Source: a virus (lineage: Duplodnaviria; Heunggongvirae; Uroviricota; Caudoviricetes). From it: a stretch of DNA of 64,000 bases. The DNA lies in the IMG/VR virus record IMGVR_UViG_3300012933_000388, positions 1-64,000 of that record. One strand, written 5' to 3'. Of the stretch, positions 21,446 through 41,601 are shown in pieces; the stretch's first letter is position 1, and every line of letters begins with the position of its first letter. Position numbers and translations under genes: made by a program. The notes beneath the pieces were generated by a model, which had not been told where the DNA came from, made no database searches, and saw nothing but the letters and a program-made list of their open reading frames with translations.

Positions 21446-21448
21446 ACA

Positions 21449-24096: not shown

Positions 24097-24105
24097 GGAT
24101 TCAGA

Positions 24106-24372: not shown

Positions 24373-25097
24373 AACAACTATACTCACACGAAGTACCAAG
24401 ATGGATGAGAATGCTTGGCGTGACTCGAGTACATAAAGAGTCAATCGATTTCAAATGGGGATACTTTGCTCCTCGTCCATCATTTCAGCTACTATTACAT
24501 CGTGGTGGATACTTTGATTCGCGATATGCTATCAGTATTGCACTAGGCTATGGTGTGTTCCACTTCTACCTTCCGTTCAAAACCAAGCTGAAAGAAGGTT
24601 GTGATTTACCACAGTATGGTATTCATATTCATGGTGATACGTTTTGGATAATGATCGGTGGCGATTATGATGAATCAATTGGTCAGGTTCAGGGTAAGAC
24701 GTGGATTACATGGGACCTACCATTCTTCAGCTATGAGTTCGATGGCCATTGGGTCAAAGACAAACAGCAGCGTTGGGCGCTGATGAAGAACTTTGAATCA
24801 TACGAATTCAAAAAGGATCAAGCATACAAAGAGCAACATCCGTTTACCTATGTTCTCAAAAACGGTACAATACAGGAAAGAACTGCGACTTGTACTATTG
24901 AGAAGCGTAAGTGGCATCGTAAGTGGTTTCCATGGCTGACCCGGGTCAGTGAAGTGATTGATGTTGAGTTCTCTGATGAGGTCGGCGAACGGTCGGGAAG
25001 CTGGAAGGGTGGAACGATTGGGTGTAGCTATGAGCTCGAGCCAGGTGATACGATTGAGAGTTGCCTAAGACGAATGGAAAAGGAAAGAAACTTTTAA
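24369..25097 (+). CDS. hypothetical protein (242 aa)
   Basis: ATGA overlap. Trp/Lys-rich with no motif I recognise. Confidence 0.6.
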   Translation: MKQLYSHEVPRWMRMLGVTRVHKESIDFKWGYFAPRPSFQLLLHRGGYFDSRYAISIALGYGVFHFYLPFKTKLKEGCDLPQYGIHIHGDTFWIMIGGDYDESIGQVQGKTWITWDLPFFSYEFDGHWVKDKQQRWALMKNFESYEFKKDQAYKEQHPFTYVLKNGTIQERTATCTIEKRKWHRKWFPWLTRVSEVIDVEFSDEVGERSGSWKGGTIGCSYELEPGDTIESCLRRMEKERNF

Positions 25098-25098
25098 T

Positions 25099-25299
25099 AT
25101 GGATGAAAAACTAATTGAGCGATTGAAGAAACTTGCTAGTAGTGAATGCTTCTATGATGATGAGGACGAAGATAAGATCATTGACGATTATGCTGGTGGC
25201 AACGTTGACGATGCTTTCCAGGTAGGTGAGCATGCAGGTCAAGTATTGCTTGCTCGTGATATCCTGACGGCGTTAAAAGTTCAATGGTGGACGGAATGA
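25099..25299 (+). CDS. hypothetical acidic protein
   Basis: TAATATG junction. Confidence 0.5.
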   Translation: MDEKLIERLKKLASSECFYDDEDEDKIIDDYAGGNVDDAFQVGEHAGQVLLARDILTALKVQWWTE

Positions 25300-25547
25300 A
25301 TGATCGAATCGAAAAACTTGCTAAAGAGCATAGGTTAATTCATATTCACATGAGCACAGGCGAATATAACGATACATTGAAGAAGTTCGAAAAGCTCGCC
25401 GAGCTGATTATCCTAGAGTGTGCTAAGGTATGTGCGGATAATGGAATGCGTGCAGGTGGTGGGAATACCATAGTTGGTGAAACTTTCTTGGATGCATCGA
25501 AGCTGATCAGAGGCAATTTCGGATTAGACACATTTGGGATGTACTGA
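25296..25547 (+). CDS. FAELLxxEC paralog family protein
   Basis: MNDRIEKLAKE...FEKLAELIILECAKVC...NFGL. ATGA overlap chosen over ORF-track 25284. Confidence 0.6.
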   Translation: MNDRIEKLAKEHRLIHIHMSTGEYNDTLKKFEKLAELIILECAKVCADNGMRAGGGNTIVGETFLDASKLIRGNFGLDTFGMY

Positions 25548-25786
25548 TGAACGATCGCACCAAGCAACTTGCTGAGCAGGCTGATCTATATGCTCGGTCT
25601 GATAATTCCAGCATGCTATTCGAAAACTGGAAAAAACAATACACCGAAAGGTTGACTGAGTTGATTGTTCGGGAATGTGCTGATAAAATCGAGCATGATT
25701 ACAAATATGAACGCGGCGAAGATACAAAGTGGATCACAGCATTTGCTATTGCTAGTGATTTGAAGGCACATTTCGGGGTTCAATGA
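25547..25786 (+). CDS. FAELLxxEC paralog family protein
   Basis: MNDRTKQLAEQADLYA...RLTELIVRECADKI...KAHFGVQ. Confidence 0.6.
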   Translation: MNDRTKQLAEQADLYARSDNSSMLFENWKKQYTERLTELIVRECADKIEHDYKYERGEDTKWITAFAIASDLKAHFGVQ

Positions 25787-26010
25787 TGTGGAACGATGAA
25801 GAATTAACCCAAGAAGAACAAAATGCACAATATCTGCAAGACAATCCGCATGTTGAATCTGGGTTGTGGGCAGAGTGGGTAGGGGTTGTATGTGGGTGGG
25901 ATAAGATTCCAACACCTACATCAGAAGAATGGACTAAGTTAAAAGCAAACTTCTATCATGGCAAGGCGCCGATAGAATCGGTTGCTGAATTAAAAAAGAT
26001 GCGGGGTTGA
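25783..26010 (+). CDS. hypothetical protein
   Basis: ATGA overlap. Confidence 0.5.
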   Translation: MMWNDEELTQEEQNAQYLQDNPHVESGLWAEWVGVVCGWDKIPTPTSEEWTKLKANFYHGKAPIESVAELKKMRG

Positions 26011-26013
26011 ATA

Positions 26014-26211
26014 ATGAAGTATAATGTAAAGAAGTTCCATGCTATCCTAGCAAAGGCACATTTGGAGATTGGTCCAAATGCAGATACAACGGCTTTGGCG
26101 GATAAGTTTGCTGAGTTGCTTGTGAGAGAATGTATCGATGTGTTATCGGAAGACGATGGGGCTACTCATCACGAGCAGTTGTTGCTCAATCATTTTGGAG
26201 TGAAACAATGA
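26014..26211 (+). CDS. FAELLxxEC paralog family protein
   Basis: LADKFAELLVRECIDVL...LLNHFGVKQ. Confidence 0.6.
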   Translation: MKYNVKKFHAILAKAHLEIGPNADTTALADKFAELLVRECIDVLSEDDGATHHEQLLLNHFGVKQ

Positions 26212-26613: not shown

Positions 26614-27141
26614 TCAATATCTTCTTAGATAGTCCTTAACCTCAGGACTTCTACCCCATACCCAGCCTTCGGGTAATTCGCGCTTTCGCCCCTCTGATCC
26701 AGTAATAGGATGATGACACCACTTCAATCCAGTCGTAGTCGGCTTACCCATACGAGCCATGGCAACAAGAGCCTTACCCATAGCAGACTTACGACTTCCC
26801 CTAGCATTACTAGGCTTACCACGCTTAGCAATAGCCATCTTCGCCTTAGTCTCATCAGACATAGTCTTACCGGTATTAGCTAACTTAACAGCAGCAACCA
26901 TCTTCATCTTCTCATCTTCAGTGAAGTATTTCCATCCCCACTTCTTCTTTACAATAGCATCCTCATAGACATCAGAGACATTATATTGCTTCTTGAGACG
27001 ATCAATAACACTAGCATAATTGCCAGAATCTTTGATCATTGCTACCTTTTCCCATGCCCGACCATGATCGTTGTAAAATTGTTTATCGCCCTTATCGGAC
27101 GTTCTGAGCGTTCTATCCCGGAGGTAAACAGTGATAAGCAT
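26614..27141 (-). CDS. homing-endonuclease-like DNA-binding protein (NUMOD3-type repeats), no recognisable nuclease domain
   Basis: Opposite strand to the surrounding array. GKTMSDETKAKMAIAKRGKP and GSRKSAMGKALVAMARMGKP NUMOD3-like repeats, plus a C-terminal LPEGWVWGR tail as in T4 Seg/Mob proteins. No GIY-YIG or HNH motif is visible. Confidence 0.5.
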   Translation of the reverse strand: MLITVYLRDRTLRTSDKGDKQFYNDHGRAWEKVAMIKDSGNYASVIDRLKKQYNVSDVYEDAIVKKKWGWKYFTEDEKMKMVAAVKLANTGKTMSDETKAKMAIAKRGKPSNARGSRKSAMGKALVAMARMGKPTTTGLKWCHHPITGSEGRKRELPEGWVWGRSPEVKDYLRRY

Positions 27142-28339: not shown

Positions 28340-28368
28340 ATTATCTGACAAAAACGAAAGTTGGTCAA
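28340..28368 (-). promoter_or_regulatory. early promoter cassette, minus strand
   Basis: Minus strand reads TTGACC-N17-GATAAT (ttgaccaactttcgtttttgtcagataat), the same family as the plus-strand cassettes. Confidence 0.55.
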
Positions 28369-28528
28369 CATAGGCGATTAGTATCAGACTGAGCTGTACG
28401 CTTATTCTAAAAGTCATTTGTCCGCAGCCGCCGTCCACCCCAGTTGCTTTCGAATGACCCTATTATACATGGTTTTGGGAAGTCGGCAACTAGGCTGTAA
28501 GTATCAGACTAGAGTTGAAGGGTACTGG

Positions 28529-28557
28529 TTGTACAAATTCCAAAACTATTGTACAAT
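28529..28557 (+). promoter_or_regulatory. early promoter cassette (island variant)
   Basis: TTGTAC-N17-TACAAT, spacer aaattccaaaactattg. Confidence 0.5.
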
Positions 28558-28578
28558 AGTGTTTTAGGAGATAAAAAA

Positions 28579-28917
28579 ATGAATAAAGTTGTTTTTGGTT
28601 TTGGTGTGAGTGTTGATTTTATTAAAAAGAATGTTGATTTTGATTTTGAATTTGAGGGTAGTGGTGTATATGAGTTTGTTGGTGGTAGTGGTGAAATATA
28701 TGGTTATGAGAAGATTAGTAATAATAATGAAGTTGAATTGATGAATGTGGATGATATTCTAAATTCTATTGTTGATGAAGATTTTAGTGAAAAAGATATT
28801 AACAAATTGAAAGAGTTTGTTTTTAGTGATTTTGATGATGATTTGGGTTGTGAGAAAATGAGGTATGTTTGTTGTTATGGTGAGGATGATTTTAGAGAAT
28901 ATTATTATGTGAAATAA
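28579..28917 (+). CDS. acidic hypothetical protein encoded by a nearly C-free ORF
   Basis: TAGGAG SD then ATG 28579. Only 3 cytosines in the ORF, and the product lacks A, P, T, H and Q. N-terminal MNKVVFGFGV resembles 29337 and 30209 ORF products. Confidence 0.55.
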   Translation: MNKVVFGFGVSVDFIKKNVDFDFEFEGSGVYEFVGGSGEIYGYEKISNNNEVELMNVDDILNSIVDEDFSEKDINKLKEFVFSDFDDDLGCEKMRYVCCYGEDDFREYYYVK

Positions 28918-28923
28918 TAACAT

Positions 28924-28980
28924 ACTAAAATGTAAGCTTATTTTAAAAAAGTTGTACAAAATTGAAATTTGTATTATAAT
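28924..28980 (+). repeat. 57-nt direct repeat copy 1 containing promoter TTGTAC-N17-TATAAT (28952-28980)
   Basis: actaaaatgtaagcttattttaaaaaagttgtacaaaattgaaatttgtattataat is almost identical to 29246-29303. Confidence 0.8.
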
Positions 28981-29025
28981 ATATTTGTAATTTGATAAAA
29001 TGTAAACTTTTTAAAAGGGGATAGT

Positions 29026-29208
29026 ATGAAAGTAGCAAAAGTTGTGTTGAACATTGAAGTGTCAATTAATGAAAATGATTATAATGATTTGATGGCAAAT
29101 TTGAAAGATGTTTGTGGGTTGACTAATAAGTGTGACTTAGAAAATTATATTAGTGATGGTTTAGTGTATGATATTGAGAAAAATAATAGTAAGTTTTTGT
29201 TTGATTAA
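29026..29208 (+). CDS. acidic hypothetical protein (C-poor ORF)
   Basis: AAGGGGA SD. 6 cytosines in 183 nt. Confidence 0.5.
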   Translation: MKVAKVVLNIEVSINENDYNDLMANLKDVCGLTNKCDLENYISDGLVYDIEKNNSKFLFD

Positions 29209-29214
29209 AAGTGG

Positions 29215-29238
29215 GAGGGACACGAAAGTGTCCTTTCT
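29215..29238 (+). terminator. rho-independent terminator
   Basis: GGGACAC-gaaa-GTGTCC followed by tttct. Confidence 0.55.
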
Positions 29239-29245
29239 ATACTTT

Positions 29246-29303
29246 ACTAAAATGTAAGCTTATTTGAAAAAAAGTTGTACAAAATTGAAATTTGTATTAT
29301 AAT
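29246..29303 (+). repeat. 58-nt direct repeat copy 2 containing promoter TTGTAC-N17-TATAAT (29275-29303)
   Basis: Differs from copy 1 by one substitution and one extra A. Confidence 0.8.
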
Positions 29304-29336
29304 TGGTTTTCTGTTTAAATGAAAAAGGAATTTGAA

Positions 29337-29714
29337 ATGAATACAAAAGTGTTTAGTTTTGGTGTGGATGAAGATTCGTTAACTTTTGAAACAGAATTTG
29401 ATTCTTTAGAGTCTTATTTTAAAGTGGAAGGAATTCGCTATTGTGGCTATTTCTTAGACAAATATAATACTGAGGTAGTCAATAGTGTTACTGTTCAAGA
29501 TAAAGAGGAACTTTTTGATTATGATGAAGGTGAGTTAGAATTAGCTAAGTTTGATGAAATGGTAGCTAAGTATGATTCATTTTTGAAAAATAATAGTGAT
29601 TATGTGTTAGTCAATTATTGTATTGAATATGATATTTCTTGGATATTAATGAGTAAAGCTGATTATGCTAAGTTTTTAGAATTGTGTGAACTAGAAGTAG
29701 CAAACGAAGAATAA
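29337..29714 (+). CDS. acidic hypothetical protein, paralog of 28579-28917
   Basis: AAAAGGAA SD then ATG 29337. MNTKVFSFGVDEDS parallels MNKVVFGFGVSVDF. Confidence 0.55.
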   Translation: MNTKVFSFGVDEDSLTFETEFDSLESYFKVEGIRYCGYFLDKYNTEVVNSVTVQDKEELFDYDEGELELAKFDEMVAKYDSFLKNNSDYVLVNYCIEYDISWILMSKADYAKFLELCELEVANEE

Positions 29715-29718
29715 AATT

Positions 29719-29742
29719 GGGAACCGAAAGGTTCCCTTTTTT
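29719..29742 (+). terminator. rho-independent terminator
   Basis: GGGAACC-gaaa-GGTTCCC followed by tttttt. Confidence 0.75.
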
Positions 29743-29751
29743 ATCTCTATC

Positions 29752-29777
29752 GGAAACAAAAGTGCCAATCGCCCCCG
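29752..29777. repeat. GGAAACAAAA motif copy 3
   Basis: GGAAACAAAAGTGCCAATCGCCCCC, in the same orientation as copies at 27661 and 27695. Confidence 0.7.
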
Positions 29778-29810
29778 GCCGAGTAAGCTTACACTTTGAT
29801 TGGTTATTGG

Positions 29811-29839
29811 TTGACCAAATTCCAAAACTGTGTGATAAT
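29811..29839 (+). promoter_or_regulatory. early promoter cassette
   Basis: TTGACC-N17-GATAAT, preceded by ttggttattgg. Confidence 0.6.
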
Positions 29840-29868
29840 TCAGTCATCGATTAAATGAAAGGTCTGTT

Positions 29869-30132
29869 ATGACAAAGTTTTTGGTTGAGGTTGTTTCGAT
29901 TGAAGATGGTGAGTATTATTCTGATAACAATGTTTCTGGATCTACTGTGAATGTGACATTACAACGTGGTAGTGACTTTGCTAGTTGTGATCAGATTTTG
30001 TTTTGGGAAGCAACTGATCAAGAAGAGTTAAACGATCTGTTCGATGAGTGGGTCGATTTGGCTATCGGTGGTGAGGAAGGCTATAGTGCTATGATCACTG
30101 AAAATGGTGTTACAAAAATGTATTCTCAATAA
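29869..30132 (+). CDS. hypothetical acidic early protein
   Basis: Single ORF between two cassettes. SD AAAGG. Confidence 0.6.
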   Translation: MTKFLVEVVSIEDGEYYSDNNVSGSTVNVTLQRGSDFASCDQILFWEATDQEELNDLFDEWVDLAIGGEEGYSAMITENGVTKMYSQ

Positions 30133-30156
30133 GCTTCGGCTTTGTATGGTTATTGG

Positions 30157-30185
30157 TTGACCAAATCGAAATTTGGTCTTATAAT
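30157..30185 (+). promoter_or_regulatory. early promoter cassette
   Basis: TTGACC-N17-TATAAT-AGAGTCA. Spacer dyad GACCAAAT/ATTTGGTC. Confidence 0.7.
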
Positions 30186-30208
30186 AGAGTCATCTAAAGG
30201 AGATCAGT

Positions 30209-30517
30209 ATGTCATTCAAGTTCGGTGTTTCTTACAACTGTGAAGTTGGTAGCAATTGTGTTGGTGGAGCAGATGATGGTTATTACAGCACTGATATGCT
30301 TGGAAACGATTTGGGCAAGATTTGTTTACACATTCAAGCAAAAGAAGCAGATCCTGATATGACATTGGTACTTAACGATGACAACTTCATCGGCGAACAA
30401 TGTTCACAAGGTGGCAAGGTTGTGGCTTATTTTGGCTACGATTATAACGGCGATGGTGAATTCTATCCAACTATCGTGATTTACGAAGATCCTGTCGACA
30501 TTGAGATTATCGAATAA
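30209..30517 (+). CDS. hypothetical acidic early protein
   Basis: AAAGGAG SD. N-terminal MSFKFGVS resembles the island ORFs. Confidence 0.6.
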   Translation: MSFKFGVSYNCEVGSNCVGGADDGYYSTDMLGNDLGKICLHIQAKEADPDMTLVLNDDNFIGEQCSQGGKVVAYFGYDYNGDGEFYPTIVIYEDPVDIEIIE

Positions 30518-30541
30518 CCTTACACTCTAGTAAGGTATTGG

Positions 30542-30570
30542 TTGACCAAATTTCGATTTGGTCTGATAAT
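30542..30570 (+). promoter_or_regulatory. early promoter cassette
   Basis: TTGACC-N17-GATAAT-AGAGTCA. Spacer dyad GACCAAAT/ATTTGGTC. Confidence 0.7.
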
Positions 30571-30596
30571 AGAGTCATTGATACAGGAGAAGTAGA

Positions 30597-30860
30597 ATGA
30601 GTACAAAGACACGTTTGGTAGCACGCACAGTTTGTGACCTCACTGGCAAAGGCCATGTGATCTATAATGACAAGATGGCTGATGGTCGCCGCAGTCTGAA
30701 GGTTTGGGGTTGGGGTGAAGACGAATATTACAGAGCTAAGTCATTGCTCGAAGTAATGGGCTGTAATGTCAAGCTGGTTGTGAATGAGCGCTTCGATGCT
30801 CGTTGGGGCGGCAATATCGTTGTGCGTCGATTGCACGTGACTGAGAATGTGACATACTGA
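30597..30860 (+). CDS. hypothetical early protein
   Basis: CAGGAG SD. Confidence 0.6.
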   Translation: MSTKTRLVARTVCDLTGKGHVIYNDKMADGRRSLKVWGWGEDEYYRAKSLLEVMGCNVKLVVNERFDARWGGNIVVRRLHVTENVTY

Positions 30861-30870
30861 GGAGAATGAG

Positions 30871-31242
30871 ATGAGTACACGCAGCTTTATTGGGTATCAG
30901 CATAACGTTGGTGAGTTTCGTGGCATGTACTGTCACTATGACGGCTACCCTAGTCACGTGGGTGCAATTCTAGCAAAGCACCACAGCAGCTTCGAATCTC
31001 TATGTGAGATCGTCTATGGTGGACAGATCCGCAACTTCGATAATGATGGCACAATCGTCCGTTTCGGTGATGAAGGCGACGACAATCCAGAAAGCTTTGT
31101 CAATCTCGCTGAGGTATTGAATGATGTGTATGATTATGCATATCTGTTTGATCAGGGTGAAAATCGTTGGAGATGCTTCGAACGCAATCGTGACCTTCTT
31201 ATTGAAGAAGTCAACATCCCCGTGAATGAGCTTACAGTTTGA
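30871..31242 (+). CDS. hypothetical early protein (YCHYDGYPS motif family)
   Basis: GAGGAG SD. FIGYQ...GMYCHYDGYPSHVG is a recurrent phage/bacterial motif of unknown function. Confidence 0.6.
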   Translation: MSTRSFIGYQHNVGEFRGMYCHYDGYPSHVGAILAKHHSSFESLCEIVYGGQIRNFDNDGTIVRFGDEGDDNPESFVNLAEVLNDVYDYAYLFDQGENRWRCFERNRDLLIEEVNIPVNELTV

Positions 31243-31262
31243 TCTGGTACTTTTAGCCCGAG

Positions 31263-31291
31263 TTGTCCAAATTCCAAATTGGACTGATAAT
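31263..31291 (+). promoter_or_regulatory. early promoter cassette
   Basis: TTGTCC-N17-GATAAT-AGAGTCA. Dyad GTCCAA/TTGGAC. Confidence 0.65.
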
Positions 31292-31317
31292 AGAGTCATC
31301 TTTTAAGGAGTACCCGA

Positions 31318-31662
31318 ATGATTGCATTGCCACATAACCCAGAGTTGTTTGTTCCACACCACACATTGCAAAAGCTGATGTACGATAAGGCGTTGATCAA
31401 GCAATTGGCCATTCAAATCGTTGCAGGGCAAGTGGAGGCTCACATCGAGATGGGTTGCGATATGCCGAGTGAGTACAACAATCACGCAGATACTGCGGCT
31501 ATGATTGGCGATGCTAAAGTAACTGCAGAGGAATACTTCGCAGATTTAGTGACTGAATTCCGCGATGCAGTATATGAGGCAATCCGTACTGTTGAAGTCA
31601 ACGTGAAATCGACTACGTTTTCACCAGAGGGCTTGGAAGATGCAGTTGTGGAGGTGCAATAA
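31318..31662 (+). CDS. hypothetical early protein
   Basis: TAAGGAG SD. Confidence 0.6.
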   Translation: MIALPHNPELFVPHHTLQKLMYDKALIKQLAIQIVAGQVEAHIEMGCDMPSEYNNHADTAAMIGDAKVTAEEYFADLVTEFRDAVYEAIRTVEVNVKSTTFSPEGLEDAVVEVQ

Positions 31663-31841
31663 TGTATACGATCGATGAATTTGAAATGCTAATGAATGAG
31701 TCATACCCTGCGATATTGATTGGCGGCCGCGAGTATGGCCGCGGCACTACATTGCGTGCAGTCGATCCAAAGCAATTCGAAATCGAATTCCATGACTGGA
31801 TGCATTATTTGGATGAGTGTGAAGAAGACCGCGTGAATTGA
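31662..31841 (+). CDS. small hypothetical protein (59 aa, below ORF-track cutoff)
   Basis: TAATG junction with the upstream stop. MYTIDEFEMLMNESYP... Confidence 0.4.
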   Translation: MYTIDEFEMLMNESYPAILIGGREYGRGTTLRAVDPKQFEIEFHDWMHYLDECEEDRVN

Positions 31842-31869
31842 ATACCCTTACAAAGTAGAAGCTTATCCG

Positions 31870-31898
31870 TTGACGGAATGTCGATTTGGACTTATAAT
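31870..31898 (+). promoter_or_regulatory. early promoter cassette
   Basis: TTGACG-N17-TATAAT-AGAGTCA. Confidence 0.65.
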
Positions 31899-31922
31899 AG
31901 AGTCATTGCAAACAAAGGATGA

Positions 31923-32534
31923 ATGATGTATAAGATCGCTGAGTATGATTTGGTCAACATTGGCCGCAACGGTATGGGTTCGATTCGCTGCAAGGTGACT
32001 GGCTTTTGGAGTGGCGATTCAATCACTCTGTATATTGATCGTCGCTTTAGCACGGTAAAAGAACCAGGTTGGAGAATCACATTATCTAACTCTTCTGGAG
32101 GCCGCGATACTGATGAGGTTGCAGACGACCTAGATGCATATAAGAATTATGCAGCCGCACTCGAAGCGATGTGTGACGTCGGTAAGATGGTTCGTATGGA
32201 GCTCCCTAAGATGGAAGCCGCATATCAAGTGCAACGCGAAGCGGACCGTCAAGAGCGTGAAGCTCAGAAGGCTGCAGAACAAGCGAAGGTTGAAGCTGAT
32301 GAGCGATTGACCGAAGTAGGCGCAACTTTGCTGGTGGAAGAGATGGCTCTGACAGGCGCATATGCACACGCTTACTATCGTGGTAGCGATGAAGTGCGAT
32401 TGGTGGAGTGCGTTCGTCGCGAAAAGACAAAGTACTACTTTGCTGGTAGCATCATGGCTAAGAAGGCTCTGATTGCTAAGTTGGCTGAGATGTCGGCACG
32501 TTCACGTATTCCTGCGGAATTGAAGGCAGCTTAA
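31923..32534 (+). CDS. hypothetical early protein with coiled-coil segment
   Basis: AAAGGATGA SD. QREADRQEREAQKAAEQAKVEADE. Confidence 0.6.
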   Translation: MMYKIAEYDLVNIGRNGMGSIRCKVTGFWSGDSITLYIDRRFSTVKEPGWRITLSNSSGGRDTDEVADDLDAYKNYAAALEAMCDVGKMVRMELPKMEAAYQVQREADRQEREAQKAAEQAKVEADERLTEVGATLLVEEMALTGAYAHAYYRGSDEVRLVECVRREKTKYYFAGSIMAKKALIAKLAEMSARSRIPAELKAA

Positions 32535-32561
32535 TAAGCTTCTGAGTTGTAAGGTTACTAG

Positions 32562-32590
32562 TTGACCATTTTGGAATTTGGACTTATAAT
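32562..32590 (+). promoter_or_regulatory. early promoter cassette
   Basis: TTGACC-N17-TATAAT, then agagtcatactaaggagagaacgATG, identical to the leader at 33607-33632. Confidence 0.7.
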
Positions 32591-32613
32591 AGAGTCATAC
32601 TAAGGAGAGAACG

Positions 32614-32760
32614 ATGAATGATTCGATTTTGATGTTTGTGGCACAACGCACGATGCCTAACCAAGTAGCAGCAATCATGGCAAAGACTGAATTGTCATTG
32701 CGTGAGCAGACTACACAATCAGTTAAGCACGAAGCCAAACTCCCAGAGGTGACAGAATAA
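32614..32760 (+). CDS. small hypothetical protein (48 aa)
   Basis: TAAGGAGAG SD. Stop overlaps the next ATG (TAATG). Confidence 0.4.
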   Translation: MNDSILMFVAQRTMPNQVAAIMAKTELSLREQTTQSVKHEAKLPEVTE

Positions 32761-33020
32761 TGTTCAAAACTCAAAGCTCAAGCAAGCCACGTCTGGCAAA
32801 CGACACACTCGGTAACGATGCTCTGACCGCATTGTACGATGCATTCAAGACGATGGACCGTGATTCGTTCCACATCTTCGCTGAGGGGGTAGTCATGGCT
32901 GGAGGTGGAAAACAACCTGTGAAACTGGCAATCTGCGAATCGATGGTAGGCGCTACCAAGGAAAAGATTCTTACGAAAGCACAGAACTTCATCCTCGCTG
33001 GGATGGGATTAGGAGTCTAA
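32760..33020 (+). CDS. hypothetical early protein
   Basis: Coupled to the upstream small ORF. Confidence 0.55.
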   Translation: MFKTQSSSKPRLANDTLGNDALTALYDAFKTMDRDSFHIFAEGVVMAGGGKQPVKLAICESMVGATKEKILTKAQNFILAGMGLGV

Positions 33021-33038
33021 ATCAGAACAAATAAACTG

Positions 33039-33066
33039 TTGACCTTATTCCAAATCTGTGTATAAT
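33039..33066 (+). promoter_or_regulatory. early promoter cassette
   Basis: TTGACC-N16-TATAAT. Confidence 0.55.
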
Positions 33067-33091
33067 TGGTTGTACTGAACAAGGAAACGAA

Positions 33092-33496
33092 ATGGCAAAC
33101 AACGAACACTCAGAATATTTGGACCGTAAACTGGCTCACTACAATGTGTGGCTACTTGACCCTAAACGTGAATTCGGCGTCCCATACAAGGGATTCCCAG
33201 AAGATTTAATTAAGACCAAAGGAAAGAAAATGCAATCAAACGTAATCGCTGATATGACTCAAGTGTTGTCTGGTACTAAGGCTCCTGTGGCCGCATCTAA
33301 GGCTAAAGCCGTCAAAGCTAAGACTGCTAAGAAGTCTGACGGTCCTCGTGCAGGTTCCAAAGGCGATATGGCCTTGGCAATCTACAAGCGTCTGAATGGC
33401 GACAAGACATCTGTGATCTCTGCAATCCAAACTGAGATCGGTATGTCTGCTGCTGGTGCGACGACTTACTTCTACAATGCTAAGAAGTTGGCCTAA
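33092..33496 (+). CDS. hypothetical basic early protein
   Basis: AAGGAAA SD. Lys/Ala-rich centre. Confidence 0.6.
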   Translation: MANNEHSEYLDRKLAHYNVWLLDPKREFGVPYKGFPEDLIKTKGKKMQSNVIADMTQVLSGTKAPVAASKAKAVKAKTAKKSDGPRAGSKGDMALAIYKRLNGDKTSVISAIQTEIGMSAAGATTYFYNAKKLA

Positions 33497-33524
33497 TTAG
33501 CCACTTTAAAAGGTTTCTCCTTTT

Positions 33525-33548
33525 AGCCCGCCTTGCGCGGGCTTTTTT
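33525..33548 (+). terminator. rho-independent terminator
   Basis: GCCCGC-cttgc-GCGGGC followed by tttttt. Confidence 0.75.
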
Positions 33549-33577
33549 ATTGTCCTTCAACTTTGTATGGTTATTGG

Positions 33578-33606
33578 TTGACCAAATTCCAAATTGGACT
33601 TATAAT
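33578..33606 (+). promoter_or_regulatory. early promoter cassette
   Basis: cttcaactttgtatggttattgg-TTGACC-N17-TATAAT-AGAGTCA. Confidence 0.7.
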
Positions 33607-33629
33607 AGAGTCATACTAAGGAGAGAACG

Positions 33630-33836
33630 ATGAACAAGTTTGAGTTTGAGGCTACTGCGACAGACGTAGTGACAAAGAATTTCGAGATCGATGCTGACTT
33701 CTACGCTGGTTCGATGTTTGTGACATGCTCATCAGCTGTTGCAGCAAGAATCGAGACTCTGTTGATCGAAGCTTTGAAGTGTGGTGTGATCGTCAGCAAA
33801 GTTGGTCCTGAATACGCTTTCGACTTCACAGTATGA
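33630..33836 (+). CDS. hypothetical early protein
   Basis: TAAGGAGAG SD. Confidence 0.6.
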   Translation: MNKFEFEATATDVVTKNFEIDADFYAGSMFVTCSSAVAARIETLLIEALKCGVIVSKVGPEYAFDFTV

Positions 33837-33958
33837 AATACATCTTAATCACGAACACAGGTAAGGTGTTCACGTTTTATCTCAAAGCTGTTGCAGAGAC
33901 TTACCAACAAGCATACGGCGGCACAATCATCAACGAACAACAAAAGGAACTAGCATGA
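33833..33958 (+). CDS. very small hypothetical protein (41 aa)
   Basis: ATGA overlaps at both ends. Confidence 0.35.
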   Translation: MKYILITNTGKVFTFYLKAVAETYQQAYGGTIINEQQKELA

Positions 33959-34140
33959 GTACGAATTCAAATTACATCGATGCGCAATTGTTTACGGTAG
34001 CTCCGCTGCCATTGGAAGAAGCAAACTATCCATATGGCTTCGATGTGCAAATCAGTCAGCAAGGCCGGAAGACGAATCACTTGCGAATCACGGCTGAGCA
34101 AATGCGTAAGATTGAGAATGTTTTAAGGGGTATCGAATGA
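33955..34140 (+). CDS. hypothetical early protein
   Basis: ATGA overlap. Confidence 0.5.
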   Translation: MSTNSNYIDAQLFTVAPLPLEEANYPYGFDVQISQQGRKTNHLRITAEQMRKIENVLRGIE

Positions 34141-34334
34141 TAGTAACAGATGTGACGTTTACCGTAATGCCTGACCAAGACTACTGCTACGAAGTGTGTG
34201 CAGGTGAATTGCTGTCCCTCACATACAAAGAGAATGCAGGCCAAGAGATTTACATCGGATTTGGTTCAGTTGGAGAGATGCAAGCAGTCGCTAAGGCAAT
34301 GTTGAAAGCGTGTGAAGTGAAGGAATCGGTATGA
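34137..34334 (+). CDS. hypothetical early protein
   Basis: ATGA overlap. Confidence 0.5.
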   Translation: MIVTDVTFTVMPDQDYCYEVCAGELLSLTYKENAGQEIYIGFGSVGEMQAVAKAMLKACEVKESV

Positions 34335-34558
34335 AAATGAATGACGTATTGCAGTGGGTTGGTTGTCTGTTCTTGATTGGTGGTCACTCACTCAATGCGC
34401 GCGGCCCGGAGGTACATCCATGGAATATCGTCGCTTTCACGCTTGGCACTTTGATGTTCCTTATCTGGACGATTCGTGTCCGTAATGCTCCTCAGATGAC
34501 CGTCAATGCAGTATCAATAACCTTATGCGTTGTAGGCTTATTAAAGGCTGTTGGTTGA
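34331..34558 (+). CDS. membrane protein
   Basis: ATGA overlap. Three hydrophobic helices. Its stop TGA lies inside the next -35 hexamer. Confidence 0.55.
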   Translation: MKMNDVLQWVGCLFLIGGHSLNARGPEVHPWNIVAFTLGTLMFLIWTIRVRNAPQMTVNAVSITLCVVGLLKAVG

Positions 34559-34583
34559 CCAACTTTCCTTTTGGACTTATAAT
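34555..34583 (+). promoter_or_regulatory. early promoter cassette
   Basis: TTGACC-N17-TATAAT-AGAGTCAACAAACAAAGGAA. Confidence 0.7.
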
Positions 34584-34607
34584 AGAGTCAACAAACAAAG
34601 GAATGAT

Positions 34608-34709
34608 ATGAACACCGATCTCAAAGTAATCCTAACAGCATGTGCAGCAGTTGTGTTGGTCTTCTCACCAGCGATTGCTACTGCTGTTTGGTTCATTGCT
34701 ACTCACTAA
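34608..34709 (+). CDS. very small membrane protein (33 aa)
   Basis: AAAGGAA SD. VILTACAAVVLVFSPAIATAVWFIA. Confidence 0.35.
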   Translation: MNTDLKVILTACAAVVLVFSPAIATAVWFIATH

Positions 34710-34719
34710 GGAGCAGAGC

Positions 34720-34908
34720 ATGTATATTGAGATGACAACATACGCGATCCCAACATTCCTAATCAAGCTGATCACTGTGATTGCAGCAGCACTTGTAGTT
34801 TGGTTTGTGTTGGTTATTCTGGGCACGGCTTTGTACAGCTACATGACAGCACGTGCGATTGAGAAACAAATGAAAATCGATGCAGAGATCGATCGTCTCC
34901 ACAAGTAA
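34720..34908 (+). CDS. small membrane protein (62 aa)
   Basis: AAGGAG SD then ATG 34720. The ORF-track start 34642 was rejected. Confidence 0.5.
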   Translation: MYIEMTTYAIPTFLIKLITVIAAALVVWFVLVILGTALYSYMTARAIEKQMKIDAEIDRLHK

Positions 34909-34917
34909 GGAAGCAAC

Positions 34918-35190
34918 ATGATTGTCACTACAGGTCTCCCACTAGGTATGGAATTCGATTGGGAAGGCAACCCACGCTACCAAAAGAGCTGGTACCAGGT
35001 GTTCGAATGTACAGACGCTGATGATAAGTGGAGCTACGGACACACCAAAGTCCTGTTTGAAAGCGCTAACCTAGCATTGGCACACACCTATGCATACAAC
35101 GCGTGGCTTGAAGATGAGACTAGGATCTACACTATCATTCAGGCGTGCGATGAATCGTGTCGTGGTGGCTACGGATTCGCAGAAGAATAA
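34918..35190 (+). CDS. hypothetical early protein
   Basis: AAGGAAG SD. Confidence 0.55.
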   Translation: MIVTTGLPLGMEFDWEGNPRYQKSWYQVFECTDADDKWSYGHTKVLFESANLALAHTYAYNAWLEDETRIYTIIQACDESCRGGYGFAEE

Positions 35191-35214
35191 CCTTCAAGTT
35201 TGTATGGATATCAG

Positions 35215-35243
35215 TTGTCCAAAGTCCAAATTGGACAGATAAT
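35215..35243 (+). promoter_or_regulatory. early promoter cassette
   Basis: TTGTCC-N17-GATAAT-TGAGTCAACAAACAAAGGAA. Dyad GTCCAA/TTGGAC. Confidence 0.65.
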
Positions 35244-35269
35244 TGAGTCAACAAACAAAGGAAAGCAAC

Positions 35270-35545
35270 ATGCGTAATCCACTAGACTTCATTCCACACT
35301 TGATCCTGGGTTGTATCATTGCAGGACCATTGCTGTTGTTGGTCTGTGCGATCGATCATGCAATTGGTACAGACAAGGTGTTGAATACGTGGACGGGCAC
35401 TAAGAGCGTATGTTCACGTCAGCAATACAACTACAGCCTGAAGGTCACTCAATGCAAGGAATATAAGTCTGTTCCTGCTGCTTGCAAGAAGGTTGAGCAC
35501 ACTGGTCCGATCTTTGGTACATTCATTAACGATCGTTGCGAATAA
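35270..35545 (+). CDS. membrane-anchored/secreted Cys-containing protein
   Basis: AAAGGAAAG SD then ATG 35270. N-terminal TM LILGCIIAGPLLLLVCAI. Confidence 0.5.
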   Translation: MRNPLDFIPHLILGCIIAGPLLLLVCAIDHAIGTDKVLNTWTGTKSVCSRQQYNYSLKVTQCKEYKSVPAACKKVEHTGPIFGTFINDRCE

Positions 35546-35555
35546 GGAGAGAATC

Positions 35556-35825
35556 ATGGACAAGTCACAAGGTTACCCAGACATCCCCGGTGCAGCAGAA
35601 TACTACTGCGAAGTGATCAAGCCAAGCGAGATGGTCACTAAGGCATTTGAAGTGATCGAGATGCAATTCTTCACTGCATATGGTGGCTGCACTCGTGGAT
35701 ACTCCTCAGAGCGTAAGGTTGCTGAGGCCTCTACCAAAGAGGTCGCTGAACAGATCGCTAAGAAGTGGTCTGCCGATCGTGGCATTGCCGCACCGTTCTA
35801 TTACTACACAAAGGAAGCGAAATGA
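35556..35825 (+). CDS. hypothetical early protein
   Basis: AAGGAGAG SD then ATG 35556. Confidence 0.55.
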   Translation: MDKSQGYPDIPGAAEYYCEVIKPSEMVTKAFEVIEMQFFTAYGGCTRGYSSERKVAEASTKEVAEQIAKKWSADRGIAAPFYYYTKEAK

Positions 35826-36052
35826 AGCTGACTAGTAAAAAGGATTTCACGGCCAATCACACTGACTACTACACTGTGTTTGATGATGGTGTTGAGATTG
35901 GGTTCTATTCACGTCGACGTAGCGCAGATCCGGTAGAGTTTGCGTTCTTCTTTGACTGTGACAGTATTGTATACGATAGTCCTACTTTTGCTAGCAAGAA
36001 GGAATTGTTTGATCATCTGAATACCCTTCAACTTTGTATGGTTGCTCGTTGA
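35822..36052 (+). CDS. hypothetical early protein
   Basis: ATGA overlap. Its stop TGA lies inside the next -35 hexamer. Confidence 0.5.
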   Translation: MKLTSKKDFTANHTDYYTVFDDGVEIGFYSRRRSADPVEFAFFFDCDSIVYDSPTFASKKELFDHLNTLQLCMVAR

Positions 36053-36077
36053 CCAACTTGGAATTTGGTCTTATAAT
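36049..36077 (+). promoter_or_regulatory. early promoter cassette
   Basis: cttcaactttgtatgg...TTGACC-N17-TATAAT-TGAGTCAACAAACAAAGGAACACTCAAATG. The leader is identical to that at 36773-36802. Confidence 0.7.
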
Positions 36078-36104
36078 TGAGTCAACAAACAAAGGAACAC
36101 TCAA

Positions 36105-36494
36105 ATGTACAGCTTCTATCCAACAGCTCCAATTCCAGTCGATCACACAGGTCTGTTCATCGTAGGCATGGTATGTGCTACATGGCTGGTCGTCTGCTTG
36201 ATGAATTGTGCAGAAGAGTTCTTTGTCAACTTCTTCTTCGTGGCAATCGTCATGGCTATCGGCTATGGTGTTAGCTTCCACTGGACAAGCCAAGAAGTGA
36301 AGACATTCAAGAATGAGAAGGTCACTGCTGAATTCGTTAGCTTTCAACCAGAAGGTTATCGCGAGAAAAGCGGTAAGTCAATGGTCGACAAACACTACAT
36401 GTACGTTGTATACTCAGTGAACGGCGATCCAGTAATCTTGCAAGGTCAGCCTGGCCAGACATATCCACAAACAGTAATCCTCTACAAGAACTAA
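36105..36494 (+). CDS. membrane protein
   Basis: Two N-terminal TM helices. Confidence 0.6.
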   Translation: MYSFYPTAPIPVDHTGLFIVGMVCATWLVVCLMNCAEEFFVNFFFVAIVMAIGYGVSFHWTSQEVKTFKNEKVTAEFVSFQPEGYREKSGKSMVDKHYMYVVYSVNGDPVILQGQPGQTYPQTVILYKN

Positions 36495-36503
36495 GGAGTT
36501 AAT

Positions 36504-36740
36504 ATGAGTCACGAAGGTTATGATACAGCTCACGAAGCAATCAAGGCCGCTATTGAAGCGGGTGGTGTAGACGAGTTTGAGGGGATGAATTGCAACGATT
36601 ACACATTTGATGATGAGACGTCAGAATGCGCTGGTTGGGACGGAGTAGATCGACGTTGTGACTGTGGCAATCGACGTGTTAGTTGGGAAACAGGTCAGTA
36701 TGATAACGGTAAATTCTATGCGTACGCTGTAGCATATTAA
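36504..36740 (+). CDS. hypothetical protein (CxGWDG...RCDCGNRRVSW motif)
   Basis: TAAGGAG SD. Confidence 0.55.
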   Translation: MSHEGYDTAHEAIKAAIEAGGVDEFEGMNCNDYTFDDETSECAGWDGVDRRCDCGNRRVSWETGQYDNGKFYAYAVAY

Positions 36741-36743
36741 CCG

Positions 36744-36772
36744 TTGTCCAAATTCCAAATTGGTCTTATAAT
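36744..36772 (+). promoter_or_regulatory. early promoter cassette
   Basis: TTGTCC-N17-TATAAT-TGAGTCAACAAACAAAGGAACACTCAAATG. Confidence 0.7.
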
Positions 36773-36799
36773 TGAGTCAACAAACAAAGGAACACTCAA

Positions 36800-37180
36800 A
36801 TGGAATTCGTAATCAAAGCCTCTGCTAAGCAACTCAAGTGTATCGCTACTGACCTCGTCGACAACCTCCTTGGGGAGTGGGATGAGGAGATCAGTCGCTT
36901 TGCTGGTGTCTATCATGCTGAGCTGGTTGAGGGAATCCTGGAAAGCTATGAATTCTCCAAGTATGTTGAAAAGAAGATAATGGCACATGGTCCAGACTTC
37001 CTCGACTATCCATTCGACTACGACAACTACATGACTGAGCTGAATGCAATTAATAAGCATATTGATGTGTTCTGTGATATTTGGTGTGAGGCTGAGCATT
37101 CAGACCGTAATGCGGTCAATCAAGAGACTCTCAATGCTGCACTGCACATTGTGCGGAAGGCTGGTTATCAGGTAATCTAA
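36800..37180 (+). CDS. hypothetical acidic early protein
   Basis: Single ORF between cassettes. Confidence 0.6.
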   Translation: MEFVIKASAKQLKCIATDLVDNLLGEWDEEISRFAGVYHAELVEGILESYEFSKYVEKKIMAHGPDFLDYPFDYDNYMTELNAINKHIDVFCDIWCEAEHSDRNAVNQETLNAALHIVRKAGYQVI

Positions 37181-37189
37181 AGTGCTACG

Positions 37190-37217
37190 TTGACCAAAGT
37201 CCAAAACGGTGTATAAT
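37190..37217 (+). promoter_or_regulatory. early promoter cassette
   Basis: TTGACC-N16-TATAAT. Confidence 0.55.
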
Positions 37218-37241
37218 TGGACACATCAACCGGAGAATACA

Positions 37242-37445
37242 ATGAAAATCGAATCCATGTTTTACATCGCTTTAGGTACAGTAGTCGATGAGATTGAGAA
37301 GGCAGATTCCTACAAAGGGTTTGTCGAGTTGGCGGAAACAACAGATGAAGCCAACCGCTATGCTCGACGTGCTCTGAAGTACAAGGCTAAGGCAATCGTT
37401 GGTTTTGATCGTGAAATGGACCGTCTGGTAAAGGAATACAAATGA
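37242..37445 (+). CDS. hypothetical protein
   Basis: CCGGAGAA SD then ATG 37242. Confidence 0.5.
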   Translation: MKIESMFYIALGTVVDEIEKADSYKGFVELAETTDEANRYARRALKYKAKAIVGFDREMDRLVKEYK

Positions 37446-37909
37446 AACGCGGCGAAATGTTAGACAAGATGCTATTGATTGTGACGAACGCTCACCATGG
37501 TCAATTCGACAAAGGCGGAAGCCCATATATCCTCCACCCACTAAAGGTCATGCATTATCTGAAGACGGATGATGAAGAGCTGATGTGCATGGCACTAGGG
37601 CACGACGTAATTGAGGACACTAAGACGACTTATGCTGAATTGCGGGAAGCAGGGATCTCTGAGCGTGTAATCAGTGCAATCAAATGCCTGACAAAGCAGC
37701 CAGGCCAGACTCTGGAAGAATATAAGGACGTGATCTTCAGCAACACAGATGCAATGCGTGTTAAGATGGCCGACTTACGTCACAACTCAGACATCCGTCG
37801 TCTGAAGGGCGTCACAGAGAAGGACCTCGCACGTATGGCAAAGTACCATATGTTCTATCTGGAAATCAAGGCCAGATTAGAGTTGCCTATTGAACATAGG
37901 TCAGTATAA
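37442..37909 (+). CDS. HD-domain (p)ppGpp hydrolase-like protein (small alarmone hydrolase / SpoT-Mesh1 type)
   Basis: AHHGQFDKGGSPYILHPLKV and LGHDVIEDT motifs of the RelA/SpoT HD hydrolase domain. Confidence 0.7.
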   Translation: MKRGEMLDKMLLIVTNAHHGQFDKGGSPYILHPLKVMHYLKTDDEELMCMALGHDVIEDTKTTYAELREAGISERVISAIKCLTKQPGQTLEEYKDVIFSNTDAMRVKMADLRHNSDIRRLKGVTEKDLARMAKYHMFYLEIKARLELPIEHRSV

Positions 37910-37933
37910 TAAGCTTTTTACAAAGGACAGATA

Positions 37934-38155
37934 ATGGCACAGTCAAATAACCCCATCCCCTATACGGGCGTCTTCCACACACCAGCGAATAGCACTGAGC
38001 TGATGGAGTGGATCACACAACACACAGGCCCTGAGCGTAGCATTGCTATGACTGCAGCGTGCATGGCATTCAACCTGGCATATACGCTCGTGGAAGAGAC
38101 CTATGACACGTCTGTGTCCAAACCAGCAAACTACGCTGACGGCACAATGGCATAA
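37934..38155 (+). CDS. hypothetical protein
   Basis: AAAGGACAG SD. Confidence 0.5.
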   Translation: MAQSNNPIPYTGVFHTPANSTELMEWITQHTGPERSIAMTAACMAFNLAYTLVEETYDTSVSKPANYADGTMA

Positions 38156-38335
38156 GCGCTCAGAAAAAGCGCATGGGGGGGTATTTCAGTCTGAGATATC
38201 CCCCAGTGGGTGGCGTATAATAAGGTCCGGAAGAATTCCTGTTGTATACCTTTTTCCAAACCGGATTTGTATAAAACCGAATCGTAAAATTTTTTTGCGG
38301 AAAAACTGACCTAAAAAAGGTCGATAGGAGTTATT

Positions 38336-40587: not shown

Positions 40588-40616
40588 TTGTTGGTCTAAC
40601 GTTTTCGTCATATAAT
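40588..40616 (+). promoter_or_regulatory. early promoter cassette (divergent copy)
   Basis: TTGTTG-N17-TATAAT-AGAGTCA. Confidence 0.5.
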
Positions 40617-40650
40617 AGAGTCATCACTTAACAACACAGAGGTTATTATT

Positions 40651-41601
40651 ATGGCACATATGGTCGAGACGATGGCATACGCTGGTGAAACGCCATGGCA
40701 CGGTTTGGGCGTGCAGGTACCAGCAGACTTATCTCCAGCTCAGATGCTGGAAAAAGCTGGCTTGGACTGGACGGTAGAAAAAGTTCCTGCTTTCGCAGAA
40801 ATCGGCGGGAAAAAAACCTCGGTCGGCTGGAGCGCTCTTGTCCGTAGTAATGATGAGAAAGTATTGTCTGTAGTTTCTAATGATTGGAACCCGGTCCAGA
40901 ACCATGAAGCTTTTGAATTCTTCCATGAATATTGCGCTGTTGGTGATATGGAAATGAATACCGCCGGTTCTTTGCGTGATGGCCAGATCGTTTGGGGCCT
41001 TGCTAAAGTAAAACAGTCTTTTGAGCTCTTTAAGGGCGATACAGTCGAGTCATATTTGCTGTTTACTAACCCTCATAAGTTCGGTCAATCGATTGACGTC
41101 CGCTTTACACCTATTCGCGTCGTCTGTAATAACACATTGACGCTGTCACTCGAGCAAAAAGCCGACCGAGTCGTCAAGAAAAGCCACCGTACACAGTTTG
41201 ATCCTAACATGGTCAAAGAGCAACTTGGCATTGCAACGGATAAACTGGCAAAATACAAGGAAATGGCTCAATTCTTGGGTAGCAAGCGCTACAACAACGA
41301 GTCTCTGACCGACTATTTTAACAAAATCTTCCCTGTTATCGCATACAACAAGGAAAAAGGCCCCCAGCGTAAGATTTTATCTAAGTCTGCCGAGCGTGCA
41401 TTGGAAGTTATCCACACACAACCTGGTGCTAACTACGCTGAAGGTTCATGGTGGCAAGCGTTTAACGCAGTGACATACCTGACTGACCACGAAATTGGTC
41501 GCTCTACCGACACTCGTTTACAATCGGCATGGTTCGGACCCAATAAGAACCTGAAATTAAAGGCGCTGGAGACAGCAGTTGAAATGGCGGAGATGGCATA
41601 A
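40651..41601 (+). CDS. DUF932 / phage-plasmid-like protein (TIGR03299-type)
   Basis: N-terminal MAYAGETPWHGLG...AGLDWTVEK is the hallmark of the DUF932 family. Confidence 0.6.
   Translation: MAHMVETMAYAGETPWHGLGVQVPADLSPAQMLEKAGLDWTVEKVPAFAEIGGKKTSVGWSALVRSNDEKVLSVVSNDWNPVQNHEAFEFFHEYCAVGDMEMNTAGSLRDGQIVWGLAKVKQSFELFKGDTVESYLLFTNPHKFGQSIDVRFTPIRVVCNNTLTLSLEQKADRVVKKSHRTQFDPNMVKEQLGIATDKLAKYKEMAQFLGSKRYNNESLTDYFNKIFPVIAYNKEKGPQRKILSKSAERALEVIHTQPGANYAEGSWWQAFNAVTYLTDHEIGRSTDTRLQSAWFGPNKNLKLKALETAVEMAEMA

Follow-up and report, generated by a model that had tools for sequence, protein, structure and literature searches.

Why should one intergenic module recur in front of one small gene after another, and what has kept so many copies alike? 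The question is raised by a 64,000 nt sequence from an uncultivated tailed phage (positions 1–64,000 of IMG/VR record IMGVR_UViG_3300012933_000388; this whole stretch is called the window from here on), in which a first-pass annotation had noticed about 17 copies of a promoter-bearing cassette. Between positions 28340 and 37241 we found 16 plus-strand modules and one divergent minus-strand module, which separate 29 small genes (g1–g29). This array very probably consists of cassettes of the promoter-early stem-loop (PeSL) type, situated in a hyperplastic region of a T4-like phage. The annotation had proposed the resemblance, and the anatomy of the modules, their clustering among open reading frames (ORFs) without recognizable relatives (ORFans) and the crossovers located inside them agree with the published description.

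The consensus given for the module, TTGNCC-N17-KATAAT-WGAGTCA, was searched with up to two mismatches over the whole window and returned 12 matches, all on the plus strand, against 0.03 expected from dinucleotide-preserving shuffles; none of 100 shuffles attained this number. With a weight matrix made from the core copies, 11 plus-strand core sites scored 44.7–59.6 bits (-35 boxes at 29811, 30157, 30542, 31263, 31870, 32562, 33578, 34555, 35215, 36049 and 36744), whereas the best of the 20 shuffled windows used as a control reached 11.4. Likewise, eight plus-strand sites in the region matched 11 of 12 consensus positions, and every one of them was a module. All positions in the earlier list are real, although its round number resolves into 11 near-identical copies, five diverged copies and two outliers. 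Three of the diverged copies (28529, 28952 and 29275) read TTGTAC...TA(T/C)AAT and lie inside an island of 30–34% G+C (28529–29714; window mean 44%) that contains g1–g3; the other two (33039 and 37190, class II) have a 16-nt spacer, and TATAAT-TGG replaces AGAGTCA. The outliers are a minus-strand copy running from 28368 to 28340 (14 bits) and a plus-strand site at 40588, which retains only the -10 box and AGAGTCAT. All copies except one fall within 28.3–37.2 kb, and no second repeated intergenic module was found elsewhere in the window. Taken as 79-nt repeat units, the modules are 61–81% identical, and they follow each other head to tail at a spacing of about 350–1600 bp. The features are given below, where indels and chimeras refer to related contigs treated further on, B364 among them.

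28340–37241, plus strand: whole cassette array (hyperplastic region), with g1–g29 at 28579–37909.
28340–28368, minus strand: predicted divergent promoter TTGACC-N17-GATAAT, reading leftward into the ORF at 28317–28147.
28529–28578, plus strand: variant module TTGTAC-N17-TACAAT, then g1 (28579–28917).
28923–29025, plus strand: variant module, then g2 (29026–29208); 28923–28980 is copy 1 of a direct repeat.
29211–29240, plus strand: predicted intrinsic terminator after g2 (-19.4 kcal/mol, z = -4.95, T-rich tail).
29245–29336, plus strand: variant module, then g3 (29337–29714); copy 2 of the direct repeat at 29245–29303.
29719–29736, plus strand: predicted intrinsic terminator after g3 (-16.1 kcal/mol, z = -4.05).
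29781–29868, plus strand: core module, -35 at 29811, then g4 (29869–30132); 44.7 bits.
30127–30208, plus strand: core module, -35 at 30157, then g5 (30209–30517); spacer repeat GACCAAAT-cgaa-ATTTGGTC at 30159–30178 (-8.7 kcal/mol, z = -2.3).
30512–30596, plus strand: core module, -35 at 30542, then g6 and g7 (30597–31242); hairpin CCTTAC-N6-GTAAGG upstream (30517–30538); spacer with an 8-bp inverted repeat.
31233–31317, plus strand: core module, -35 at 31263, then g8 and g9 (31318–31841); 6-bp inverted repeat GTCCAA...TTGGAC.
31840–31922, plus strand: core module, -35 at 31870, then g10 (31923–32534); no stem-loop found.
32532–32613, plus strand: core module, -35 at 32562, then g11 and g12 (32614–33020); leader identical to that of the 33578 copy.
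33021–33091, plus strand: class II variant TTGACC-N16-TATAAT-TGG, lacking AGAGTCA, then g13 (33092–33496).
33525–33543, plus strand: predicted intrinsic terminator after g13 (-13.3 kcal/mol, z = -3.2), directly upstream of the 33578 module.
33548–33629, plus strand: core module, -35 at 33578, then g14–g18 (33630–34558), five genes with ATGA stop/start overlaps.
34525–34607, plus strand: core module, -35 at 34555, then g19–g21 (34608–35190); stop codon of g18 in TTGACC.
35185–35269, plus strand: core module, -35 at 35215, then g22–g24 (35270–36052); 7-bp inverted repeat TGTCCAA...TTGGACA (predicted hairpin at 35216–35238).
36019–36104, plus strand: core module, -35 at 36049, then g25 and g26 (36105–36740); stop codon of g24 in TTGACC; chimeric with respect to B364.
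36714–36799, plus strand: core module, -35 at 36744, then g27 (36800–37180); left border of the g27 indel.
37181–37241, plus strand: class II variant, -35 at 37190, 16-nt spacer, then g28 and g29 (37242–37909); right border of the g27 indel.
40588–40650, plus strand: outlier with a weak -35 (TTGTTG) and TATAAT-AGAGTCAT, then a DUF932 gene (40651–41601); 21.3 bits.

Alignment of the copies showed that a module takes up all the space between the stop codon of one gene and the ATG of the next. The stop codon usually lies within AATA(A/C)CC and is followed by a conserved box, CTTAC/CTTCA...GGTTATTGG, the two together reading AATA(A/C)CCTTAC...GGTTATTGG. Next come a predicted near-consensus sigma-70 promoter (G-TTGACC, a 17-nt spacer and (T/G)ATAAT), the motif AGAGTCA(T/A), conserved directly after the -10 box, and a leader of 17–23 nt with a ribosome-binding site (AAGGA/GGAG) that ends at the ATG. 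The leaders fall into a small number of stereotyped kinds (ACTAAGGAGAGAACG or ACAAACAAAGGAA...), and the two pairs of twin leaders noticed previously, at 32591/33607 and 36078/36773, are exactly identical over 41 and 43 nt. In 11 of 15 modules, -4 to 28 nt separate the stop codon from the -35 box, and intergenic lengths are 49–81 nt where no terminator is inserted. As annotated, each cassette precedes one to five genes, and two ORFs, ending at 34558 and 36052, use the TGA inside TTGACC as their stop codon. The frames of these genes, g18 (34331–34558) and g24 (35822–36052), cross the box and stop within the -35 hexamer, so that the upstream box of the module encodes the C-terminal 10–14 residues of both products and the cassette is partly overprinted by coding sequence.

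The repeated unit is this regulatory module and not the genes that it precedes, since an all-against-all blastp comparison of the 29 proteins found no pair at E ≤ 0.01. The products (33–203 residues) vary widely in length, charge and membrane character; 15 of the 29 have an isoelectric point (pI) below 5 and about five contain a hydrophobic segment. They are nearly all unknowns, as had been stated, with 27 of 29 lacking a Pfam or PHROG match; the host-takeover or anti-defence role that the first-pass annotation read from their profile is hypothetical. The two others are g7, a member of a PHROG of unknown function, and g29 (37442–37909, plus strand), a SpoT/RelA-type HD hydrolase (PHROG 990, 1.8e-56; TIGR00691, 7.6e-15) and possibly a small alarmone ((p)ppGpp) hydrolase, whose place varies from after g28 in the window to between g16 and g17 in B364.

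Relatives of the array were retrieved from IMG/VR with a degenerate pattern of the full module, which was needed because a scan of the database with exact 20-mers gave no match; g10, looked up as an exact sequence in the assembly index, had no hit either. The module recurs in at least eight other uncultivated phage contigs, with AGAGTCA, the box and the leader types conserved, and one 43-kb contig bears it up to 13 times. In contig B364 (3300012347_000364, 222.8 kb) every exact-pattern match fell in one region, a homologous array (locus L022) of about 19 modules whose gene blocks share 79–93% nucleotide identity with the window. Modules are hereafter designated by P and the position of their -35 box, preceded by W for the window. 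The variant module in front of g3 is orthologous to P808 of L022, and a homology block with L022 terminates inside the minus-strand promoter at 28340–28368. The left part of L022 is collinear with the window save for indels (g3 g4 g7 g8 g9 g10 g11 g13, with g5 missing after g4), whereas the right part is scrambled (g16 g29 g17 g17' g22 g23 g28 g21 g24 g20 g25 g14 g15). Genes g1, g2 and g5 are missing from B364; in the window, a 58-nt direct repeat of the module, 96–100% identical, flanks g2. Additionally, B364 contains a tandem g17-like pair (L022 7246–7634 and 8318–8494, 78% and 42% identical to g17), and its class II promoter is separated from g28 by about 100 additional bases. Far from being collinear and invariant, which would have spoken against the PeSL reading, the region also differs in gene order in five further contigs (A814, C028, E486, F299 and I117/J397).

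A metagenome contig closer to the window, L026, is 90–97% identical to it over W 31632–38189 and has five indels in about 6.5 kb. Its g27 is missing exactly at the site of a hybrid module, L026 P3896, which is identical to W P36744 at 40 of 43 positions on its left and to W P37190 at 27 of 28 on its right; a module of this composition is the product expected of cassette-to-cassette recombination. The indel of g23 plus g24 has its right end at the -10 box of P36049, that of g28 has its left end within the leader of P37190, and g20, g21 and P35215 are absent as one block. With respect to B364, W P36049 is a chimera, with 44 of 46 positions on its left identical to B364 P9205 and 52 of 52 on its right identical to B364 P9945, around a 12-nt spacer core that matches neither. 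Similarly, the 33578 module and the B364 module preceding g14 are identical at 49 of 52 positions from the -10 box onwards, compared with four of 17 in the spacer and nine of 40 upstream. The modules are mosaics in which the upstream box moves with the upstream gene and the leader with the downstream gene, and the crossover points of the hybrid modules lie inside the -35 box or the spacer. These crossovers support the likeness, drawn by the first-pass annotation, to PeSL cassettes, which act as recombination substrates.

The 17-nt spacers vary by genome. Their identity is 69% within the window, 49% when orthologous positions in the window and in B364 are paired, where the flanking genes are 79–93% identical, and 42% for non-orthologous pairs. 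The spacer consensus is a different one in each of six genomes, and one L026 module has a spacer of the A814 type. We thus read the spacer types as lineage barcodes that become uniform within a genome and now and then pass from one genome to another.

PeSL cassettes are known from the phage pairs phi1/RB49, T4/PST and KVP40/nt-1, where they comprise an upstream stop codon, a near-consensus sigma-70 promoter with a 17-bp spacer, a ribosome-binding site and the ATG; the published sets include degraded copies (Arbiol et al., 2010, PMC2839356; Comeau et al., 2014, PMC4122927). In phi1/RB49 the stem-loops most commonly lie between or overlap the -35 and -10 boxes, and promoter activity, terminator activity and mini-circles were shown experimentally (Arbiol et al., 2010; Comeau et al., 2014). 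The array agrees with these systems in being an intergenic unit of a T4-like phage, repeated from stop codon to ATG and clustered in one hyperplastic region among ORFans; in the predicted stem-loops that part of its copies have across the promoter boxes, between them or a little before them; in its indels, replacements and reorderings, with crossovers in the cassettes that leave hybrids behind; and in a motif flavour of its own, as seen for each phage pair. It differs in belonging to a new lineage with a probable betaproteobacterial host and in the strong conservation of AGAGTCA(T/A) after the -10 box. In addition, the activities known by experiment in phi1/RB49 are predictions for the present cassettes.

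T4 early promoters are strong and depend on the host sigma-70, and they stand before short early genes of unknown function. They have a G before the -35 hexamer, which is of the GTTTAC type, conservation that reaches past both hexamers, and an A-tract UP element. Set against this general picture, the cassettes share the G before the -35 box, the conservation beyond the hexamers and the short unknown genes, but their -35 is TTGACC and they have no A-tract UP element.

Predicted stem-loops, which the first-pass annotation did not report, occur in some of the copies. An uninterrupted inverted repeat of 6–8 bp overlaps the -35 box and the spacer in five of the 11 core copies, compared with 1.8% of shuffled spacers, and as read-through RNA these repeats have predicted folding energies of -6.8 to -9.3 kcal/mol. 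A hairpin in the upstream box is clear in the 30542 copy and in several copies of other genomes, with stems of up to 11 bp. Most transcription units lack a terminator, as had been remarked: only three canonical ones occur in the array, each followed by a module. The hairpins, which are present but variable, would act as terminators. The upstream box is not claimed as a conserved RNA hairpin, and a small hairpin around the -10 box (GGACU...GAGUC) was attributed to chance, since it is not conserved in other genomes.

Several observations weigh against the assignment to PeSL cassettes, or limit it. The stem-loop is weak or missing in about half of the copies, and where present it is short and A/T-rich (6–8 bp, -7 to -9 kcal/mol), not built of a G-run and a C-run as in the described PeSLs. 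The spacer inverted repeat was not found in five related genomes and is specific to this phage. The upstream box folds better than shuffles (z < -2) in 14 of 60 copies across genomes and in one of 11 in the window, and it shows no covariation beyond the complementarity of the consensus, its pairing frequencies being those expected from column composition; with so few folding copies and pairing at the level of composition, no conserved structure can be claimed. Described PeSLs have an AT-rich tract where the modules have a conserved box of mixed composition: positions -30 to -1 average 64% A+T, compared with 56% for the window, contain no A-tracts, and reach 80–83% only in the three variants of the AT-rich island. 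As to the breakpoints, about 10 of 27 homology-block ends lie at tight gene junctions with a cassette in neither genome, and in L026 the exact absence of g17 has an ATGA stop/start overlap at either end and a cassette at neither. Exchange is thus not confined to cassettes. Finally, the enrichment of breakpoints in cassettes may partly reflect selection against breaks inside genes.

Of 28 block ends, 10 fall in module spans, which cover 15% of the region (binomial p = 0.006), and a manual count that accepted a module in either genome gave about 17 of 27. The earlier expectation that gene-content polymorphism would be bounded exactly by cassettes does not always hold: roughly a third to a half of the block ends are at promoter-less gene junctions.

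Among the other explanations, one takes the array as a set of co-regulated operons, in which the inverted repeat GACCAA(AT)...(AT)TTGGTC over the -35 box would be the site of a dimeric repressor, from the phage or the host, that turns the array off after the early period; the similarity of the modules would then reflect selection for that site and not recombination. The excess of inverted-repeat arms of at least 6 bp in five of 11 copies fits this proposal, and so does the 69% identity of the spacers, which are usually free to vary; moreover, a spacer consensus for each genome could track a co-evolving protein. However, the absence of the repeat from the five related genomes led us to reject the palindrome as a family-wide operator, and its restriction to this phage argues against a conserved one. 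The variable position of the arms (TTG[A/T]CC versus GG[A/T]C) is symmetric in five of 10 copies, which is the chance level, and B364 has several spacer families instead of one operator. In the array itself, family searches identified no DNA-binding protein. The product of g13 (33092–33496) was considered as a candidate regulator: it is basic (pI 9.8), has a Lys/Ala-rich linker, occurs in most related contigs examined (38–63% identical) and may bind nucleic acid, and it had no sequence match in Pfam, PHROG, NCBIfam or PDB. Because chimeric modules and spacer types that move between genomes are direct signs of recombination, we consider the operator explanation quite unlikely.

Very unlikely, in our judgement, is a convergent origin, by which each gene would have acquired a strong promoter independently and shuffling would proceed by illegitimate or microhomology events anywhere between genes. 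It would account for the g17 indel at ATGA overlaps and for the block ends at promoter-less junctions, and breakpoints are in any case expected to survive only between genes. It does not account for similarity that extends far beyond the hexamers, over whole 79-nt units and as exact matches of 41–43 nt, for the hybrid modules that cross over inside the -35 box or the spacer, or for spacers homogenised within each genome. Tandem duplication of an ancestral unit of promoter plus gene, with the genes diverging afterwards, which the head-to-tail arrangement and a short N-terminal similarity between g1 and g3 (MN.KVF.FGV; 10 of 22 residues, with E = 0.003 when this pair alone is compared) might suggest, was rejected as extremely improbable given the absence of paralogues, the disparity of the proteins and the variable number of genes per unit.

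On the PeSL reading each cassette is a self-contained intergenic unit, with the host sigma-70 RNA polymerase predicted to transcribe its one to five genes immediately after infection; AGAGTCA(T/A) would set the start at the A located seven bases past the -10 box (for the core copies, 29846, 30192, 30577, 31298, 31905, 32597, 33613, 34590, 35250, 36084 and 36779), and the hairpins that lie within the promoter or close before it would, with the three terminators, damp read-through from upstream units. The comparison of genomes shows recombination at the cassettes. Because these share tens of identical bases, putative phage enzymes of homologous recombination can cross over between them, within a genome and between co-infecting relatives. 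Such crossovers delete, insert, reorder or swap the genes between them and leave hybrid cassettes, and the same process homogenises the cassettes of each genome. The comparison also shows a second route, by which genes move at ATGA overlaps or other tight junctions with no cassette.

Arbiol et al. (2010, PMC2839356) likened PeSL arrays to integron cassettes. The window likewise has unrelated small ORFs between repeated recombination elements, gained, lost and reordered, but each of its cassettes has its own promoter, whereas integrons have one shared promoter, and exchange appears to use general homologous recombination plus microhomology. No match to an integrase or recombinase family was found among the array proteins or the large flanking ORFs scanned, and no attC-type site was seen.

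The phage itself is assigned to the T4-like myoviruses by its gene content: the window encodes gp32 (PF08804, 3.4e-45), gp59 (N- and C-terminal domains) and gp6-like and gp8 baseplate proteins, and its baseplate wedge protein is 39–43% identical to the counterparts in Sinorhizobium phiM12, Caulobacter Cr30 and Stenotrophomonas DLP6. Its gp32 shares at most 63% identity with that of any isolate, and megablast of the array against GenBank phages gave no nucleotide match, as befits a new lineage, distant from the cultured T4-like groups. The host is probably a betaproteobacterium, to which a two-piece (permuted) transfer-messenger RNA (tmRNA) of betaproteobacterial type points (42974–43397, plus strand; Rfam tmRNA_permuted, 147.5 bits; beta_tmRNA, 140 bits; ARAGORN tag peptide VTANESSYALAA). 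The 222-kb relative has a copy of this RNA (L022 17277–17720) with 91–97% identity. The T4 late-promoter consensus TATAAATA has no occurrence in the 64 kb, against 2.8 expected, and could not serve as a contrast class for the cassettes; since it is absent despite the baseplate genes, the late promoters of this lineage presumably differ.

To the left of the array, about 3 kb away, lies a gene with a strong match to Acb3 (24369–25097, plus strand; PF25187, 1e-55), an inhibitor of the cyclic-oligonucleotide-based antiphage signalling system (CBASS) and a known anti-defence gene. Immediately left of the array, on the opposite strand, an ORF with a NUMOD3 motif (26614–27141, minus strand) suggests a homing-endonuclease-like gene. 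A 37-nt motif (AAGTTCGCTGAGTTGAT...) occurs five times with 65–78% identity inside small plus-strand ORFs at 20154–26130, a neighbouring small-ORF region without a promoter cassette for each gene, where the motif possibly belongs to a family of paralogous proteins.

We also contemplated that the genome-specific spacer signatures and, in this phage, the -35 palindrome are not by-products of gene conversion but sites of a phage DNA-binding factor that tells the phage's own cassettes from those of co-infecting relatives. We regard this as unlikely; if true, the factor would serve shut-off or target recombination, and the array would be an integrase-free, promoter-embedded system of gene capture with its own specificity determinant, besides the cassette-independent ATGA route.

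PeSLs, described in 2010 and 2014, have so far come from cultured phages of only some T4-like lineages, namely the T-even, pseudo-T-even and schizo-T-even phages. The window extends the architecture to an uncultivated and distantly related T4-like group, probably of Betaproteobacteria, and its natural variants (a single-gene indel bounded by a hybrid, left/right chimeras and homogenised spacers) provide evidence on the mechanism at the level of single bases. The spacer types could be used as natural barcodes to trace the exchange of phage genes in metagenomes, and the approximately 29 candidate early genes, nearly all ORFans and near an anti-CBASS gene, make a compact list for host-takeover or anti-defence screens. 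Together, these results support the view that promoter cassettes generally drive the turnover of accessory genes in T4-like phages. They are not alone in doing so, since ATGA overlaps also border exact gene indels.

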